The translations under genes were made by a program, and so were the position numbers. Positions 43,326 through 55,571 of a DNA stretch of 55,571 nt are shown here, piece by piece (positions within the stretch are counted from its first letter, which is position 1; every line of letters begins with the position of its first letter). The stretch lies in sequence record OR791690.1; one strand, 5' to 3'. The notes below the pieces were generated by a model. The model made no database searches. It saw nothing but the letters and a program-made list of their open reading frames with translations, and had not been told where the DNA came from. The DNA comes from Escherichia phage vB_EcoM_JL1.

Positions 43326-43606
43326 TTGCGAGTTGCGATTTGCATGGACTTGTTTGGGCCGCAGTAGAAATATTTCTTAACTTCGGCAAGGGTGTAGTTG
43401 GCACTGCTTTCAAGCAACTCCTTAAAGGTGTGCTTCCAGAATCCATCTTTCTCCGACAAACTTACGTGGAAAGAATTGGTGCCGTTATAGTACCAACGCC
43501 CACCAACGAGAACGAAGTGGATTGTTTCTTCCTCTCCTTCCCCACTCGACGGAAACATTAGTACATTTCTCAACGTCAAAACTTTAGCAGAATGCTTGCG
43601 AATCAT
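43286..43606 (-). CDS. Hypothetical protein
   Basis: 106 aa; GGAGAG RBS. Confidence 0.45.
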   Translation of the reverse strand: MIRKHSAKVLTLRNVLMFPSSGEGEEETIHFVLVGGRWYYNGTNSFHVSLSEKDGFWKHTFKELLESSANYTLAEVKKYFYCGPNKSMQIATRNWTTNQPIYGVPF

Positions 43607-44157
43607 AGGAACTCTCCAATTTTCGATTCAGTGTTTGTGACTTCTCTTCTCATCTTTTGGCCCAGGAACAGGCCACAGGGTAGCGCAGGAAGGCCGAAAA
43701 TCGGGCCACTGCCTACCGTTTGTGTCAATTCTGGATAACTGCATTGGCGAAGGGTTACTCCCGTTAGGGTGCGATACGCTAATCACATGAGTGTCGTCGC
43801 CTTGCGGCTCAGGCGTGTCACAGAGGCTTTGCAACCCTTCCCAATACATTCACCCAATCCACCCGCTTTGGCATAGCTGGTGGCGCGGTTTTGTGCGGAT
43901 TATGCCACTCTAAGCCCTGTTTGTCCGACTTCCTCAGAGCACCAGCAGCTTGTGGCACAAACCTATTTTCGAATGACTAACATAAGCATGAGGCATAACC
44001 CTCTAATTATTCAGCCCTAACAGCTTGCTTATTTAGTTCCAATTCATCCCAATACATCGCCTATAACAAGTGAATAGCTTTCTGTGGATAAGTATTCCGG
44101 CCCTTTGGCCTATGTTAAAAGATAAATGTATATGATGGAAACATTCCATCGAAAAGA

Positions 44158-44222
44158 ACTTTGTAGAACGAATCGAACGTTCTCACACGTCTTGGTACCA
44201 GACGGACTACCTAGTTACAAAG
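44158..44222 (-). ncRNA. tRNA-like minihelix (D-arm-less)
   Basis: acceptor CTTTGTA/TACAAAG, T-arm GAACG-TTCGATT-CGTTC, one internal hairpin; 65 nt; 20 nt downstream of motif P7. Confidence 0.3.
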
Positions 44223-44241
44223 CTCTTATCTGATGTTGTTT

Positions 44242-44260
44242 CTTCAATTCCAACTAATGT
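44242..44260 (-). promoter_or_regulatory. Phage-promoter-like conserved motif (copy P7)
   Basis: plus cttcaattccaactaatgt. Confidence 0.4.
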
Positions 44261-44271
44261 AATTTTGTGCT

Positions 44272-44362
44272 GTACTCTCTTCCCAAGTTGTCCAGACTTG
44301 GTTGTTTGAGGCTGCGCTTATTGCAGTGGACTTCCTCTACAATTGCTAGTGGAAAAGAGTAC
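44272..44362 (-). ncRNA. Candidate structured small RNA between motifs P8 and P7
   Basis: 12-bp inverted repeat arms (gtactctcttcc / ggaaaagagtac) enclosing ~67 nt with an internal hairpin; no ORF. Confidence 0.25.
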
Positions 44363-44379
44363 AGACAGAATTACACTAA

Positions 44380-44399
44380 TTCAATTCCAATTAATGTTT
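44380..44399 (-). promoter_or_regulatory. Phage-promoter-like conserved motif (copy P8)
   Basis: plus ttcaattccaattaatgttt. Confidence 0.35.
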
Positions 44400-44465
44400 C
44401 AGAATTATTCCAATATTCCAAACAAAAAGAATAATAAGAATAAATTAAATAAATGAAGAAAGTGC

Positions 44466-44495
44466 TTGACACCCATTTGGCGATAAGTGTATAAT
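44466..44495 (+). promoter_or_regulatory. Near-consensus sigma70 promoter on the non-coding strand
   Basis: TTGACA (44466..44471), 18-nt spacer, TATAAT (44490..44495), TG immediately upstream of the -10. Confidence 0.5.
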
Positions 44496-44520
44496 GCCTT
44501 TCTTCCCTAAGTGGTCAGAA

Positions 44521-44539
44521 TCAAATCCCACTAATGTTT
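44521..44539 (-). promoter_or_regulatory. Phage-promoter-like conserved motif (copy P9)
   Basis: plus tcaaatcccactaatgttt. Confidence 0.4.
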
Positions 44540-44606
44540 CAGACTAAAGCCGAAGGCCAATGCGAGCACAAAACCCGCTTGGCACTTCGAAGAAACCCGC
44601 CTGGAA

Positions 44607-44846
44607 CTATAGTGTTTTCCAGTCCGAGTCAAATAGCTCTTTCGGTCGTGTGTAGATAGTAGAAGAATCAATACTTAAGAAAGTATGGTCCCCGTACTTC
44701 TTCACTTCTTGGTAAGCAAACCCATCTACCCAACTTCCGCAGTGAGTTTTAATCTTTGTAGGCCCAAGAATACGATAGAAAGTGTTTCGAGGCTGGTGGT
44801 GAACAATCAATCCAGCCTCAAGTTCAGCAATATTTAAATCACGCAT
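44607..44846 (-). CDS. Hypothetical protein
   Basis: 79 aa. Confidence 0.45.
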   Translation of the reverse strand: MRDLNIAELEAGLIVHHQPRNTFYRILGPTKIKTHCGSWVDGFAYQEVKKYGDHTFLSIDSSTIYTRPKELFDSDWKTL

Positions 44847-45396
44847 TTAAGAATAATATTCCCTCAGAGAAAATGTAGTCACTTCCATAATCTCTGGTGA
44901 TTGCATCCCAATCAATATATGGTGCAAGTCGGTCTGGAATATCCAGTGCCTCACTTTGCTTCAAATATTCTGTAATTGAGTCGCAACGTGTAATGAACAT
45001 ATCGTTCAAATCATCCACAGTGAAAATATCAATCTCACCACTGCGGAATGCTGCAAGAATTACATCCAAATCGGTGTCAACAAGCAGCTCATTGAACTTA
45101 TCATATTTACGAATGCTGAATAGCCCATTGGCAAAGCAAACTTCGGTAACATCTTCTTCATTTGACTCAATTACGTCGTATGTACCGGTTTCTGGATATT
45201 CAATGCCATATTCTTCATGCAAATAATCTCGCATGTTGAAATCATAGTGACGCCAAGACAGGCCATCAATCCACGCATCTACAAATTCAGAATTAGTTTC
45301 GCCTGTGTAGAAACGAACCAATAAGGTTTCATCTCTACGCCAGGACTTAAGCTGTTCTACTGCTTGAGTAATTTGGTTTTCCATCGGATTCTCCAT
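44839..45396 (-). CDS. ArdA-like acidic protein (candidate anti-restriction DNA mimic)
   Basis: 185 aa, strongly acidic; C-terminal YIDWDAITRDYGSDYIFSEGILF resembles ArdA as I recall it. Confidence 0.45.
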   Translation of the reverse strand: MENPMENQITQAVEQLKSWRRDETLLVRFYTGETNSEFVDAWIDGLSWRHYDFNMRDYLHEEYGIEYPETGTYDVIESNEEDVTEVCFANGLFSIRKYDKFNELLVDTDLDVILAAFRSGEIDIFTVDDLNDMFITRCDSITEYLKQSEALDIPDRLAPYIDWDAITRDYGSDYIFSEGILFLNA

Positions 45397-45404
45397 TGAT
45401 GAAG

Positions 45405-45803
45405 TTATGCTGGAAGTTCGAAGTGCGGTGCATCAAGGAACTTAGCCCATTTCACTGGCTTAGTGAAGGTCCGTTCCCATGTTCCACCCCAGCGAATGAC
45501 AACTCCAAGCTCTTCTGCGGCTTTGAACATGTGTTCAGCCACAATTTGGAATCGTTCGAGGTCATTCCAGTCAATCGGATATGGTGCAATGTCTAAAGCA
45601 TTGCCTGACATGTGTCGGCTAACTGAAACTTTGGTTGCACCTTGCTTTAAAAGCTCTTGTTGACGCTCATGAGTGCGCAATCCTTCAAGAACAGTTACGT
45701 CAAACGGCATTGTTTCACATGCACGCTTGAAAACTGCCACCAATGAAGGATTTACGCCTTTGAGTCGGTCAATGGAGCGTTGGCCCAGCTTAACGTTAGA
45801 CAT
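45405..45803 (-). CDS. Peptidase M15-type (L-alanyl-D-glutamate peptidase / VanY-like) peptidoglycan hydrolase
   Basis: SRHMSGNALDIAP zinc-binding motif; 132 aa. Confidence 0.6.
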   Translation of the reverse strand: MSNVKLGQRSIDRLKGVNPSLVAVFKRACETMPFDVTVLEGLRTHERQQELLKQGATKVSVSRHMSGNALDIAPYPIDWNDLERFQIVAEHMFKAAEELGVVIRWGGTWERTFTKPVKWAKFLDAPHFELPA

Positions 45804-48295: not shown

Positions 48296-48315
48296 CTTCA
48301 AATCCAACTAATGTT
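48296..48315 (-). promoter_or_regulatory. Phage-promoter-like conserved motif (copy P10)
   Basis: plus cttcaaatccaactaatgtt; shares ~30 nt with P11. Confidence 0.45.
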
Positions 48316-48354
48316 AGATTAATCAGGAACACTCAATGAATGCTCCTTGTTAAT

Positions 48355-48685: not shown

Positions 48686-48704
48686 CTCACAATCAACTAA
48701 TGTT
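48686..48704 (-). promoter_or_regulatory. Phage-promoter-like conserved motif (copy P11), ~20 nt upstream of gene start
   Basis: plus ctcacaatcaactaatgtt. Confidence 0.45.
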
Positions 48705-48744
48705 AGATTAATCATGGACACCTACAGGAGATGCCCATTGTTAA

Positions 48745-52520: not shown

Positions 52521-52992
52521 AATATTTGTTGCTCAAAATCGGGGCGGCAAACGATATTAAATTCGATGCTTTGTCCGACTTCTTCTCTTCTTTCGAATTC
52601 TGATTGAAAGAAAGAAGCATGTCCAAAAGTTCCAATATTACAAAGTTATCTCCCGGCTTGTGGGTGGGCCTTTATAATAGGAGATGGAGCAATATTGTTG
52701 CAATTGAACATGCTTTAGTTGAAGAACAGTTTCGAATGGTAATCCTACTTCACACATGGTTGTTGGAACTTTGTCCGGCCAAAGACAGGGAGTTCAATGA
52801 TTGCCACATCATTACAACACTGTATGTTTAGTTGACATGCTGAAATGTTTCTAGAATGATTTCAACATGACATGCGGAATACTTCTCCGTATTCTGTTAC
52901 TTCACATCCAACTAATGTTACAGGTGGCTACAATATTGAAGCCAGCTCTAAGATTAATTGAAACAAGAAAAGGGAGCCGAAGCTCCCAAATA

Positions 52993-53193
52993 TCAGAACG
53001 GTATCTCTGTATCGAAATAACCAGAATTGTGCAAATATGCATGCAGTAATACATGCGACTCTTGTTTATATTCTGCTAACAACTCTAAGAAGTCTTTAGT
53101 CTCCTCCACTGTAGGACGAGATAAGTTGCTCATGTCACAGGTGTGATGAGGGTTGAAACAGTTTTCGATTTGATTGATTTGCATGGTATTCAT
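52993..53193 (-). CDS. Copy of 417..617 (small protein ending DTEIPF)
   Basis: sequence identity with 417..617. Confidence 0.5.
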   Translation of the reverse strand: MNTMQINQIENCFNPHHTCDMSNLSRPTVEETKDFLELLAEYKQESHVLLHAYLHNSGYFDTEIPF

Positions 53194-53241
53194 TATAAGT
53201 CTCCAAGTTTGTGGTCATCCTTGACCAATTAGTGTTACTGA

Positions 53242-55356
53242 TTATTGACAGAAGTAGTAAGCGTGTTCGCTCATCAGAAGCTCTTCAGTTACGATGTTCT
53301 CATGATACATCTTGATGCCACCAAGTTGCTTAGACAGATTCTCGAATTGATTGTTGGTTACAAAGATTTCAACATATGCTGCACGAATAACTTCCATCAT
53401 ACGTGGAGCATCTGCCAAACAGCAACGGAAACAATCATGGATTGAAGTGAAGCCACGAAGACCAGCTTCTTTAGCTTTAACTGCAACAGTACGAGCAACA
53501 AGTGCATCAATGCCCTGAATGTAGTTAACAACGAAAGTACGCTTGAATTCTTCTTTAGTTGGATTGGATTCACGAATGGTCCAAGGCTTATTCTCCTGAA
53601 TCTGACCAAAGATAACACGAGTTTGGGAGTCAACACGAATGCTGAATGCCTCACAGATTTCACGAGATGGGAAGCAAGGCTTCATTACAACCTGACCATC
53701 AGTGTGACGATATGTGATGTACTCTTTACCAAGTTCAACACAACGGTTGTATGCAGCATCAGCAGCTTTCTCAATGAACATGTTAATCTTAGCACCCAAT
53801 GCGTTATGGATTGCTTCCACACACAGTTCAGCAAATGCCTCAGCTTTCTCCATAGGAATCTGGAGTGCTTCTGTCATGTAGCTGATGAAGTCAGAAGAAC
53901 CAGTCAATGCAGCTTTACCACCACCGTATTGGATAGCCATGTACGGAGTTTTGATAAACTTACGACCAGCTTTCGGATTCAAGAATTCATCCATGATTTC
54001 AGGAGATGGTTTCATTGAAGACTTGTCCAGCAGCTTCAACAGTTCACGAAGACTCAACTGGTATGGGTCAGATGCTTTAGTCTCAGAATCAACCAGACCT
54101 GTTGCACGAGCCATTTCCATATTACCAGCAATGAATGCCAGATATTGAGTACCAGAACATTTAGCATCTAAGCCAAAGCCTACACGAGAATCACATTCAC
54201 CTGTAGTCTCGAACTTGAACCAATCCAGAGCCAGACGAACATAAGTGAATGGCTTGGAAGGACGTTCAGCTTTAGGCATGTTCATCATGCGAGCAAGTGA
54301 ACCAGCTGGATTCTGAGCAACATAAGTTAAACGCTTAGCACTGCACCATTCACCACCAGAAATATCTTCCAGCTCTGCCATAAACATGTTGTATGCAATG
54401 GTAGTAGAACCATCTTCGTTAAACTTCTTAACGATGTTCTCAACATTGTGAGAATACAAGCAACGAGCAAAGTCAGATGATTGTGGGTTAGGACCAGCAC
54501 ATGCTACATGATACAGACGACCACGGTTATCAGCAAAGTAGTCAGAATACAGTGTGTCCTGATTCATCATTGCTACAGCATTGTTCCAAACATGGAGTTC
54601 AGTCTGGATTGCTTCTGGCATCTGCAAGCCACCATAGGTACGTTGTTCAAGCATGGACTGAATGATGCGAACCATCTCAGTCTCCACATGGTACTCAGTA
54701 TCTTGCAGGAATTCGATTGCAGCTTTCAGAGTTTTGGATGGCTTAACTTTGCCACCTTTAACGAAAGGCTTGCGACGAGATTCAGATGTAACACGCTCAG
54801 TGAATGGCACTGCGGTATCTTTGGTTGTAACCAGCTCAACCCATGTGTCAGTTTGTTGGAACGACTTATCTTCGTTCATGGTGATGAAGCCAAAGTGCTT
54901 AGCCAGGCCAATGAGGTTGATAGCTGGGTCAACATAGTGCATTGCTTTCAAATCATTGTTGTAACGGTTGGCATCAGCAATTGAAGCAGAAGCCAGCTCA
55001 ACCATTGCAATTGCAGGAACAACATCATCACGAGTGAATGAGGTCATCATCTTAAAGATTGCAAGAGCAGCAATAGCACAGGTCTGAGGTTGCATGTAGT
55101 TCTGTTTCTCTTTGGCACGATATACCAGAGCAGTGATAGCAGGGACAACGGATTTGATAGTTTGAGTTGAGATAGTTGCCATTTTGCGAGTCTCCAATTT
55201 AGTTTCGGTTTTAGTTTCGGATTGTGTAGCGGAGGTGATTTCATCTACCATCTGGTTGCAACGGTCCATCGTATCGAGCACGTCTTTCCAACCGTGGCCT
55301 TCTTCTTTTAAGCGAGCACCATCAGCAGCCAGTGTACGATATTCTTCATTAGTCAT
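53242..55356 (-). CDS. Copy of T7-like single-subunit RNA polymerase gene
   Basis: identical to 666..2780. Confidence 0.85.
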   Translation of the reverse strand: MTNEEYRTLAADGARLKEEGHGWKDVLDTMDRCNQMVDEITSATQSETKTETKLETRKMATISTQTIKSVVPAITALVYRAKEKQNYMQPQTCAIAALAIFKMMTSFTRDDVVPAIAMVELASASIADANRYNNDLKAMHYVDPAINLIGLAKHFGFITMNEDKSFQQTDTWVELVTTKDTAVPFTERVTSESRRKPFVKGGKVKPSKTLKAAIEFLQDTEYHVETEMVRIIQSMLEQRTYGGLQMPEAIQTELHVWNNAVAMMNQDTLYSDYFADNRGRLYHVACAGPNPQSSDFARCLYSHNVENIVKKFNEDGSTTIAYNMFMAELEDISGGEWCSAKRLTYVAQNPAGSLARMMNMPKAERPSKPFTYVRLALDWFKFETTGECDSRVGFGLDAKCSGTQYLAFIAGNMEMARATGLVDSETKASDPYQLSLRELLKLLDKSSMKPSPEIMDEFLNPKAGRKFIKTPYMAIQYGGGKAALTGSSDFISYMTEALQIPMEKAEAFAELCVEAIHNALGAKINMFIEKAADAAYNRCVELGKEYITYRHTDGQVVMKPCFPSREICEAFSIRVDSQTRVIFGQIQENKPWTIRESNPTKEEFKRTFVVNYIQGIDALVARTVAVKAKEAGLRGFTSIHDCFRCCLADAPRMMEVIRAAYVEIFVTNNQFENLSKQLGGIKMYHENIVTEELLMSEHAYYFCQ

Positions 55357-55571
55357 GATAAAGTCTCCAATTGATTATGATTTAACTGAAACGGATTAGA
55401 CTTGCGTAGCCTATTCATAATCACAACCAACTAATGGTGAGGTGAGCACACTACAACAGCGTACTCTGATTGCCTTTGACCTTGACTTATAAGCGAAGCG
55501 CCTAACTTGGTGTTGTTTGAAAGCCGATAGGCTGTAGGAAAAAGTTGGAGTAGGGACCGTATTTAAGTCCG

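Follow-up and report, generated by a model that had tools for sequence, protein, structure and literature searches.

The question raised by this locus is whether a very acidic open reading frame (ORF) of Escherichia phage vB_EcoM_JL1 encodes an ArdA-type anti-restriction protein, and when and against what such a protein would act. The window, that is the whole stretch of DNA analysed (55,571 nt), is the complete genome of a Carltongylesvirus (Chaseviridae). The reading we prefer, at a probability of roughly 0.72, is that the ORF encodes a divergent phage-borne DNA mimic of the ArdA family which would block Type I restriction-modification (R-M) enzymes.

The gene and its start codon

The original prediction, made from the sequence alone, placed a 185-aa protein at 44839-45396. 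This reading frame is present on the minus strand without interruption, the quoted sequence matches, and the translation contains the segment YIDWDAITRDYGSDYIFSEGILF. The gene is defined by the following features:

44839-45396, minus strand: longest ORF form of the ArdA-like gene, 185 aa, from an upstream ATG at 45394-45396
44839..45384, minus strand: ArdA-like coding sequence, 181 aa plus stop, from the preferred ATG at 45382-45384
45391..45394, minus strand: GGAG, a Shine-Dalgarno-like sequence judged so by its spacing and the starts of orthologues, 6 nt 5' of the preferred ATG and within the first four codons of the 185-aa form (context ...CATCAATGGAGAATCCGATGGAAAA)

The second ATG (45384) is probably the true start, giving 181 aa, because of the GGAG located 6 nt upstream and the start sites of the orthologues: those of phiEcoM-GJ1 and DE15 are both annotated from the equivalent methionine with 181 aa.

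The ORF is a real gene under purifying selection, with a dN/dS of 0.14–0.21 against its orthologues. A chance open frame, for which only the general caveat speaks that ORF lists are mechanical, was rejected and has practically no probability left: the gene is conserved at 30–97% identity in 50 phage records and about 75 protein clusters, its dN/dS is low, its fold is predicted with confidence, and it has a Shine-Dalgarno-like sequence and tight packing with neighbours on both sides.

It is also an ordinary and already annotated feature, namely the orthologue of phiEcoM-GJ1 gp22, which has carried the label “antirestriction protein” since 2008. Some orthologues are labelled wrongly, as “tail fiber protein” in MLP1, PYps3T/4T/16T/23T and FXie-2024a, and as “replication inhibitor protein” in Pel53. 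Literature searches turned up no functional or anti-restriction experiment on any Chaseviridae ArdA-like protein.

Relationship to ArdA in sequence and predicted fold

The original prediction proposed an HMM search against ArdA (PF07275) as its check, and the outcome depends on what is searched. For the protein alone, PF07275 is the top Pfam family (18.8–18.9 bits, E 0.0025–0.0027; model positions 42–145 of 155, extending to residue 170 of the 181-aa form), but the score is below the Pfam gathering score of 27 bits. Its relatives and profiles are positive: PF07275 is the top family in all 13 diverse clade members searched (best E 6.3e-8), and precomputed PF07275 matches exist on most (~22) of the relatives with 30–40% identity.

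A profile built from 35 clade sequences found 461 proteins in 1.84 billion, and all nine sampled matches of ~165 aa pass the Pfam ArdA gathering score (36–132 bits). Canonical ArdA matches align to this profile only from about position 45–115 on. Aligned to bona fide ArdA with hhalign, the clade reaches 99.6% probability (E 1.2e-23); the 91 aligned columns begin at residue 93 and fall in the C-terminal half only. A profile match to Tn916 ArdA (PDB 2W82) covers residues 103–161 of the latter. Searched against PDB, profiles A1 and A2 reached 2W82 at E 0.07–0.08, level with a designed protein, which is suggestive but alone not decisive. Moreover, PHROG 14321 (“anti-restriction protein”) matches the protein at E 4.8e-52.

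Other searches gave less. NCBIfam had no match for the protein, and ArdA was missed by single-sequence phmmer against PDB, whose top hits, to archaeal PriL (E 0.26 to 0.54), were rejected as chance matches. A weak DUF6429 match (E about 0.01, residues 38–65) occurs in 7 of 13 clade members and is sub-threshold. The tblastn search of 72,556 plasmids returned no plasmid ardA match at E<=0.01, which leaves the protein without a direct tie to the plasmid ardA genes that have been studied by experiment. As judged by intermediate sequences and profiles, the protein is a distant but genuine ArdA relative; this sequence-level homology is confined to the C-terminal half, and the N-terminal half resembles ArdA by predicted structure only.

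In the AlphaFold monomer model (pLDDT 89.8, pTM 0.80), the protein is predicted to form three small domains in a row, as in an elongated ArdA-type monomer. ArdA 2W82 is the sole Foldseek match in PDB at E<=0.001 (E 1.2e-4, probability 1.00), with TM 0.56/0.61 over 174 columns, nearly full length. The order of secondary structures agrees with the 2W82 layout, in which domain 1 is a beta-sheet with a helix, domain 2 a helical bundle and domain 3 a beta-sheet with helices. Among viral structures (BFVD), the neighbours of the model are Chaseviridae “antirestriction proteins”. The regions of the protein and its defining segments, all numbered on the 181-aa form, are:

45334..45384, minus strand: residues 1–17, N-terminal helix (H2–14), net charge about +1, from model secondary structure and segment charge
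45160..45333, minus strand: residues 18–75, domain-1-like, three strands and short helices, net charge -11, from DSSP of the model and Foldseek with 2W82
45034..45159, minus strand: residues 76–117, domain-2-like helical region, net charge -6, helices 77–83, 91–101 and 106–115 in the model
44842..45033, minus strand: residues 118–181, domain-3-like, net charge -10, from hhalign (99.6%), the profile match to 2W82 103–161 and Pfam ArdA
44908..44949, minus strand: residues 146–159 (ALDIPDRLAPYIDW), equivalent of the ArdA “anti-restriction motif”, from pairwise and HMM alignments
44851..44919, minus strand: residues 156–178 (YIDWDAITRDYGSDYIFSEGILF), the segment pointed out in the original prediction, including YID, D165 and L177-F178

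The N-terminal helix is specific to the Chaseviridae clade and makes up most of the extra length compared with the canonical ArdA of ~165 aa, and a 4-residue insertion, EIDI (residues 117–120), is found in the Carltongylesvirus subclade. Residues 18–75 are like ArdA in structure only, and the hhalign alignment does not extend there. Clear sequence homology lies in residues 118–181, the counterpart of ArdA domain 3, which is the dimerisation domain.

[quoted passage not shown] L127, E129, V130, P131 and L134 of Tn916 ArdA correspond to L147, D148, I149, P150 and L153 here, and Y137, I138, D139 and D146 correspond to Y156, I157, D158 and D165. Tn916 G159-I160-F161 aligns with G175-I-L177-F178, in which L177-F178 is the equivalent of the VF motif. 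G175 and F178 never vary among the 35 clade members, and I157, D158, Y170 and P150 hardly do. By these alignments, the dimer-interface and essential residues of ArdA are conserved in the phage protein. The ArdA resemblance of the C-terminal segment that the original prediction pointed to is thus upheld by HMM, profile-profile and structural comparisons, and it carries the equivalents of Y137/I138/D139, D146 and the VF motif. Seven acidic residues of Tn916 ArdA (D109, D111, D112, D115, E122, E123 and E129) are said to form a charge pattern across the dimer interface; only about four of the seven positions are acidic here (D125, D128, D135 and D148) while N127, K142 and Q143 are not, in a gapped pairwise alignment that differs from the HMM alignment.

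“Very acidic”, as the original prediction described it, fits the protein well. It contains 22 D and 18–19 E against 4 K and 10 R, with a pI of 4.05 and a net charge of -26/-27. Of the 62 minus-strand ORFs in the window with 80 aa or more, it has the lowest pI and is also the most negatively charged. Each of the three predicted domains is net negative (-11, -6 and -10). The pI is 4.05–4.57 in 35 of 35 clade members and 4.05–4.35 in the bona fide ArdA set, and the net charge is within the ArdA range. In the clade alignment, 18 columns are at least 80% D/E and 3 columns at least 80% K/R, and acidic residues are kept position by position; those in residues 18–75 are D18, D36, D40, D48, D53, E57, E58, E62 and D70.

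Gene neighbourhood and transcription

The gene belongs to a compact stretch on the minus strand, with these features around it:

45405..45803, minus strand: endolysin gene (Peptidase_M15_4; PF13539 E 5.6e-9, PHROG 465 endolysin E 2.2e-54)
44607..44846, minus strand: 79-aa ORF, PHROG 2652 (unknown function), its ATG overlapping the stop region of the ArdA-like gene by 8 nt
44551..44589, minus strand: stable hairpin followed by CUUUAGU, a likely terminator just behind the 79-aa ORF (RNA fold -31.3 kcal/mol, z -3.45)
48297..48316, minus strand: nearest upstream phage-type promoter motif, TAACATTAGTTGGATTTGAA, from the scan with GJ1 promoters
48686-48705, minus strand: second upstream phage-type promoter motif, from the same scan

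The endolysin gene lies directly upstream and ends 20 nt before the preferred start. On the other side, homologues of the 79-aa ORF also overlap the ArdA-like gene in Faunus (45% identity) and 4HA13 (37%), so that the two genes are a conserved, translationally overlapping pair in three genera. No meaningful Pfam match came up for the 79-aa ORF or for its homologues in Faunus and 4HA13, and neither Rfam nor tRNA scans detected anything in the window.

The hairpin at 44551..44589 likely ends the transcription unit, and in SA91KD a terminator is annotated at the matching position. The promoter scan was built on the seven promoters annotated in phiEcoM-GJ1, and its matches lie on the coding strand only. 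A unit running from SSB through the endolysin gene and the ArdA-like gene to the 79-aa ORF presumably starts at the motifs at 48.3–48.7 kb; the GJ1 and SA91KD annotations also place the ArdA-like gene in a phage-promoter unit. Its start is 10,187 nt from the genome end, and its neighbours are non-structural early/middle genes, the tail module being about 25 kb away.

The original prediction had assumed early expression in support of an anti-restriction role, an assumption that this arrangement qualifies. Judged by promoter position, the gene would be transcribed by the phage RNA polymerase and not from an immediate-early host promoter. Being ~10.2 kb from the end, downstream of phage-RNA-polymerase-type promoters and beside the endolysin gene, it may deliver its protein after the incoming DNA has already been exposed.

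Proposed function and comparison with known systems

The ArdA homodimer mimics about 42 bp of bent B-DNA. The phage protein would likewise be elongated, with three domains studded with aspartate and glutamate, and would probably pair head-to-head through its C-terminal domain to imitate bent B-form DNA. It would then occupy the DNA-binding groove of the host Type I enzymes (the HsdS/HsdM core together with neighbouring HsdR contacts), and enzymes with an occupied groove would be kept from cutting unmodified phage DNA. We infer dimerisation, Type I enzyme binding and the anti-restriction effect. Monomeric ArdA mutants retain antirestriction activity (PMC3906837), and canonical ArdA acts against Type I enzymes but leaves BREX and Type III EcoPI uninhibited (PMC10149784). 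The clade-wide PF07275 matches, the hhalign result and the conserved motif residues support the DNA-mimic idea of the original prediction.

In favour of a need for protection, each of the eight Type I specificities tested has target sites in the genome. Their counts show no general avoidance: only EcoKI (2 observed against 8.5 expected) and EcoEI (1 against 7.0) are depleted, each at a level reached by ~1% of shuffles, and this depletion is weak since eight motifs were tested. It hints that the phage also relies on site avoidance. No modified bases are reported for Chaseviridae (ICTV), and the annotations of the closest RefSeq relative include no methyltransferase.

Could the ArdA similarity be compositional or coincidental, in an acidic protein with an unrelated structural or replication role? 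The labels “tail fiber protein” and “replication inhibitor protein” on orthologues and the sub-threshold single-sequence Pfam score would fit such a role. However, searches of Pfam, PHROGs and NCBIfam gave no tail-fibre or replication family, the genes around it are non-structural and the tail module is far away, and the link to ArdA rests on Y156, I157, P150, L153, G175 and F178, not on composition alone. Together with the unique fold match to 2W82, the profile-profile match effectively refutes this role, which we regard as highly improbable.

An ArdA-fold DNA mimic could also have a main target other than a Type I enzyme, such as a repair nuclease, another defence system or a nucleoid or transcription factor, and might act with the overlapping 79-aa partner. 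Fletchervirus gp119, which is ArdA-like and acidic, is an inhibitor of endonuclease V both in vitro and in vivo (PMC13091555), and a DNA mimic is in principle able to inhibit any DNA-binding protein, its shape setting the specificity (PMC10149784). The N-terminal half, the proposed HsdR contact in ArdA (PMC2731889), has diverged beyond sequence recognition here and carries an extra helix, the gene appears to lie in a unit driven by the phage RNA polymerase and not an immediate-early one, and its conserved overlap with an uncharacterised ORF in three genera would also fit. We nevertheless think another main target unlikely: gp119 matches ArdA domains 2–3 only whereas the present protein matches 2W82 nearly full length, the dimer-interface motif that is characteristic of ArdAs targeting Type I enzymes is preserved, and those canonical ArdAs that have been tested act specifically on Type I systems (PMC10149784). 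Chaseviridae DNA is moreover reported as unmodified, which leaves no evident need to inhibit a repair enzyme in the way gp119 does.

From the unrecognisable N-terminal half, the added helix, the apparent phage-RNA-polymerase-driven expression and the overlapping partner, one may go on to suppose that the whole Chaseviridae clade was retargeted to a host factor beyond Type I R-M (another defence system or a DNA-processing enzyme), or that it forms a two-protein module with the 79-aa partner. We hold this to be quite doubtful. If true, it would be a second phage case of a repurposed ArdA scaffold after Fletchervirus gp119, and with a non-Type I target the clade would strengthen the growing view that ArdA-fold DNA mimics are a scaffold open to retargeting.

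For an ArdA-family mimic acting on Type I enzymes, our preferred reading, the analysis supports the long-standing similarity-based annotation in Carltongylesvirus/Chaseviridae despite the sub-threshold single-protein Pfam score, and flags the wrong labels on orthologues. The practical value is modest. Such phages are considered for biocontrol or therapy of E. coli, Yersinia and Erwinia, and a working Type I anti-restriction protein, if it is one, would help explain their broad within-species host range.

The closest known proteins are phiEcoM-GJ1 gp22 and the other Carltongylesvirus orthologues (vB_EcoM_DE15 gp28, ST32 ORF26), annotated “antirestriction protein” by similarity only. Amino-acid identity ranges from 80% (GJ1) to 96.8% (DE15), the length is 181 aa, the gene sits in the same place between the endolysin gene and the overlapping small ORF, and there is no substantive difference.

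With Tn916 ArdA (Orf18; PDB 2W82), the plasmid ArdAs (ColIb-P9, pKM101) and PF07275, the protein shares the predicted three-domain elongated fold (ArdA being the only significant PDB neighbour), the anti-restriction/dimer-interface motif, the YID core, a VF-type motif and a pI of about 4. It differs in its low identity (16–19%), the sub-gathering Pfam score, the missing BLAST-level match to plasmid ardA, the N-terminal half unrecognisable by sequence, the extra N-terminal helix (181 against ~165 aa) and the EIDI insertion. The gene resides in a lytic phage, and a phage RNA polymerase apparently transcribes it, whereas ArdA has a conjugative leading-region promoter.

T7 Ocr (gp0.3) is similar in concept, as an acidic phage DNA mimic against Type I R-M, and this phage, like T7, encodes a T7-like single-subunit RNA polymerase. 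Ocr had no match in HMM or fold searches with the ArdA-like protein and is unrelated in fold and sequence. In T7 it is expressed before any other gene, driven by host promoters at the leading end, whereas the ArdA-like gene lies behind phage-type promoters, at a distance of about 10 kb from the end. Ocr also blocks BREX, which the tested ArdAs do not (PMC10149784).

Fletchervirus NCTC 12673 gp119 is likewise a phage-encoded, very acidic, ArdA-like predicted DNA mimic, and it shields a deoxyinosine-containing genome from EndoV (PMC13091555). It resembles ArdA domains 2–3 only, whereas the model of the present protein matches all three and Chaseviridae DNA is reported unmodified. Finally, the bacterial proteins sArdC and sArdN show that the C-terminal or N-terminal domain of ArdA alone can give anti-Type I activity (PMC12548430). 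They are one-third-length, single-domain proteins from bacterial chromosomes, while the phage protein is full-length with three predicted domains; their activity makes activity plausible for the phage protein as well, although only its C-terminal half is well conserved.

The acidic reading frame and its family

44839-45396, minus strand: ArdA-like ORF of 558 nt and 185 aa, containing YIDWDAITRDYGSDYIFSEGILF
44607-44846, minus strand: 79-aa ORF, sharing 8 nt with the 3' end of the ArdA-like gene

The original prediction described a very acidic protein of 185 aa, and the minus-strand translation of 44839-45396 is indeed the quoted protein, including YIDWDAITRDYGSDYIFSEGILF. The gene probably starts at the second ATG (45384) rather than the first. 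GGAG lies 6 nt 5' of the second ATG in ATGGAGAATCCGATG, and the orthologues of phiEcoM-GJ1 (MENQIIQ...) and vB_EcoM_DE15 are annotated from the matching Met, with 181 aa (the numbering used here). A chance ORF is excluded, and dN/dS against the orthologues is 0.14-0.21. The acidity also held up: with 22 Asp and 18 Glu vs 4 Lys and 10 Arg (pI 4.05, net charge -26), the protein ranks first in the window for both low pI and net negative charge, out of 62 minus-strand ORFs with 80 aa or more. Judged from the alignments, this acidity is more than mere composition. The pI is 4.05-4.57 across all members of the clade (Chaseviridae homologues), the clade alignment has 18 columns with at least 80% Asp/Glu vs 3 with at least 80% Lys/Arg, and half of the 40 Asp/Glu positions of the window protein hold an acidic residue in the majority of relatives at 30-40% identity (background 0.205). 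All three predicted domains carry negative net charge (-11, -6 and -10).

PF07275 (ArdA) is the best Pfam family for this protein (E 0.0027), so the HMM check proposed with the prediction returned the expected family on top, but for a single sequence the 18.8 bits stay below the gathering score of 27. No match was found in NCBIfam, phmmer against PDB did not find ArdA, and tblastn found no plasmid ardA. Two homologue searches gave about 75 clusters; some 25 of the relatives are 30-40% identical, and almost every one of these has a precomputed PF07275 match. PF07275 was the top family in 13 of 13 members of the first diverse alignment (best E 6.3e-8). A clade profile of 35 sequences, scored against 1.84 billion representative proteins, yielded 461 matches at E<=0.001, many of them about 165 aa long, and all nine of the latter that were checked exceed the Pfam ArdA gathering score (36-132 bits). 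When the phage clade was aligned with 17 ArdAs of this ~165-aa set by hhalign, the probability was 99.6% (E 1.2e-23, 91 columns); the alignment is limited to the C-terminal half (residues 93-181), and ArdA is not recognisable from sequence in the N-terminal half. At the sequence level, ArdA membership is settled by this family-level evidence, the single-sequence Pfam test being marginal.

The Carltongylesvirus subclade carries a four-residue insertion, EIDI (residues 117-120), and ITRCDS replaces the Y-x-G-x-Y-x-S stretch common to other Chaseviridae and canonical ArdAs. Because of this insertion and divergence, this subclade alone falls below the Pfam ArdA threshold. The protein belongs to a Chaseviridae-specific subfamily at or below the Pfam detection limit.

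Predicted fold and ArdA-defining residues

The AlphaFold2 model from the 35-sequence alignment is confident, with a mean pLDDT of 89.8, a pTM of 0.80 and no segment below 50. Foldseek against PDB gave a single match at E<=0.001, the ArdA of Tn916 (2W82; E 1.2e-4, probability 1.00, TM 0.56/0.61, 174 aligned columns). Since the 174 columns superpose simultaneously, we infer that the model retains the linear three-domain arrangement of ArdA, beyond one domain. Three strands with short helices are followed by a helical region and a strand-and-helix C-terminal domain, in agreement with the published ArdA description (PMC2731889), and an additional N-terminal helix (residues 2-14) largely explains why the protein is longer than canonical ArdA. 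The closest viral predicted structures are "antirestriction proteins" from other Chaseviridae. By homology and predicted fold, the protein belongs to the ArdA superfamily.

In ArdA, Y137, I138, F161 (VF motif) and F91 are essential, and the anti-restriction motif 126-140 forms the dimer interface, L127 and L134 being interface hydrophobics and D139 and D146 hydrogen-bonding residues (PMC2731889). The equivalents here are Y156 (Y137), I157 (I138), D158 (D139), L147 (L127), L153 (L134), P150 (P131), D165 (D146) and L177-F178 (VF motif), in columns invariant or nearly so throughout the clade. The C-terminal segment said to resemble the end of ArdA carries Y156/I157/D158, D165 and L177-F178; it is exactly the defining-residue region, so the proposed resemblance to ArdA is correct. 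Only about 4 of the 7 acidic residues of the dimer-interface charge pattern appear to be retained, and the alignment is ambiguous there.

Genome, annotation and transcription

Megablast and tblastn assigned the window to genus Carltongylesvirus, family Chaseviridae, with about 95% identity to phages DE15, Bp7 and TH53. Its ends, 1-2995 and 52577-55571, are direct terminal repeats (2,995 bases, 0 mismatches), as in the ICTV description of Chaseviridae repeats of about 3 kb (PMC12842549), and this makes the window a complete genome of 55,571 bp (52,576 bp unique), in the reverse of the conventional orientation. The polymerase gene, lying within the repeat, is thus present twice:

666-2780 and 53242-55356, minus strand: T7-like RNA polymerase gene, within the terminal repeat

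Over the whole window, ARAGORN found no tRNA and Rfam no RNA family, although the matching region of phiEcoM-GJ1 has an annotated tRNA-Arg ("may contain an intron").

The orthologues phiEcoM-GJ1 gp22 (80% identity; since 2008) and DE15 gp28 (96.8%) are both labelled "antirestriction protein", and PHROG 14321 ("anti-restriction protein") aligns over the full length (E 4.8e-52). Because near-identical proteins are so annotated in GenBank and RefSeq, the anti-restriction label is already known, not new. Orthologues in MLP1 (NC_079176), PYps3T/4T/16T/23T, FXie-2024a (PP107930) and Pel53 (PP952070) go under the names "tail fiber protein" or "replication inhibitor protein", for which this analysis gives no support. 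The host label of "Staphylococcus phage Pel53" (S. hyicus) looks doubtful, because its nucleotide identity to these coliphages is about 90%.

Every gene in the window is on the minus strand. With the seven putative phage promoters from the phiEcoM-GJ1 annotation as probes (20-nt motif, consensus CATTAGTTGGATGTGAA, at most 3 mismatches), we found matches on the coding strand only, at 55439, 52920, 52072, 48705, 48316, 44539, 44399, 44262, 42627 and 42295, with terminal-repeat copies at 2863 and 344, invariably between genes or gene blocks. The 2022 ICTV profile states that promoters of Chaseviridae "have not yet been identified", yet the CATTAGTTGGATGTGAA motif behaves as a true set of phage-RNAP promoters would.

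The predicted transcription unit from 48705/48316 contains SSB, several small ORFs, the endolysin, the ArdA-like gene and the 79-aa ORF, and would end at a stable hairpin right after the last (-31.3 kcal/mol, z -3.45), which makes the ArdA-like gene penultimate; the SA91KD annotation has an identical layout. Conserved counterparts of the 79-aa ORF in Faunusvirus (45% identity) and Sabourvirus (37%) overlap in the same way; the ORF falls in PHROG 2652, of unknown function, and has no Pfam match. The two form a conserved gene pair, and the ORF is a possible functional partner.

The endolysin gene (Peptidase_M15_4; 45405-45803, minus strand), directly upstream of the ArdA-like gene in this early/middle phage-promoter unit, lies well away from the structural and packaging genes, with no holin evident beside it, a placement kept in GJ1, SA91KD, Faunus and 4HA13. 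At 43606-44540 (minus strand), three tandem phage-type promoters (44539, 44399, 44262) in an AT-rich stretch (GC 0.33) face about 0.6-1 kb without a long coding-strand ORF, a CDS-free gap also annotated in relatives. The arrangement recalls the primary origin of T7, which lies 3' of the tandem phi1.1A/B promoters, or else a non-coding RNA; Rfam returned nothing. Inside the promoter cluster, a perfect sigma-70 consensus (TTGACA-18 nt-TATAAT; 44466-44495, plus strand) is antisense to all genes.

Anti-restriction role and its alternatives

Sites for all eight Type I specificities considered are present in the unique genome (1-52576), for example 9 EcoBI, 6 EcoAI and 18 EcoR124I. Compared with dinucleotide shuffles, EcoKI (2 vs 8.5 +/- 3.0 expected) and EcoEI (1 vs 7.0 +/- 2.4) are under-represented, while EcoR124I (18 vs 10.0) and StySBLI (6 vs 2.5) are over-represented; some specificities may be selectively avoided, a weak signal given eight motifs. 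Chaseviridae have no modified bases according to ICTV (PMC12842549), and no methyltransferase is annotated in the closest RefSeq relative. A phage with unmodified DNA and Type I sites would benefit from an anti-Type I protein.

The best-supported explanation, to which we give a probability of about 0.72, is a family-typical DNA mimic blocking Type I restriction-modification. The protein would be an elongated acidic mimic, probably dimeric, that fills the DNA groove of the Type I enzymes. Tested ArdAs are Type I-specific, BREX and EcoPI not being inhibited (PMC10149784). Monomeric (PMC3906837) and single-domain (PMC12548430) ArdA derivatives keep antirestriction activity, so by analogy activity is plausible here despite the divergent N-terminal half. 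That same divergence is in keeping with the main rival, a protein retargeted to a different or additional target, as are the later promoter class, the conserved overlapping 79-aa partner and the inhibition of EndoV by the ArdA-like gp119 of Fletchervirus (PMC13091555); we consider it unlikely. Taken as one proposal, that the protein was retargeted or works with the 79-aa partner as a two-gene module seems improbable.

Timing bears on the Type I-blocking role as well. The start of the gene lies 10,187 nt from the genome end, and its predicted place in the early region stands if "early" is taken broadly, as the part of the genome that serves host takeover before replication (PMC6266442). Going by the promoter positions, the gene would require the phage RNA polymerase for its transcription, which speaks mildly against a role confined to first-line protection. 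In this it would differ from T7 ocr, which has no such dependence, and the ArdA-like protein is not related to Ocr.
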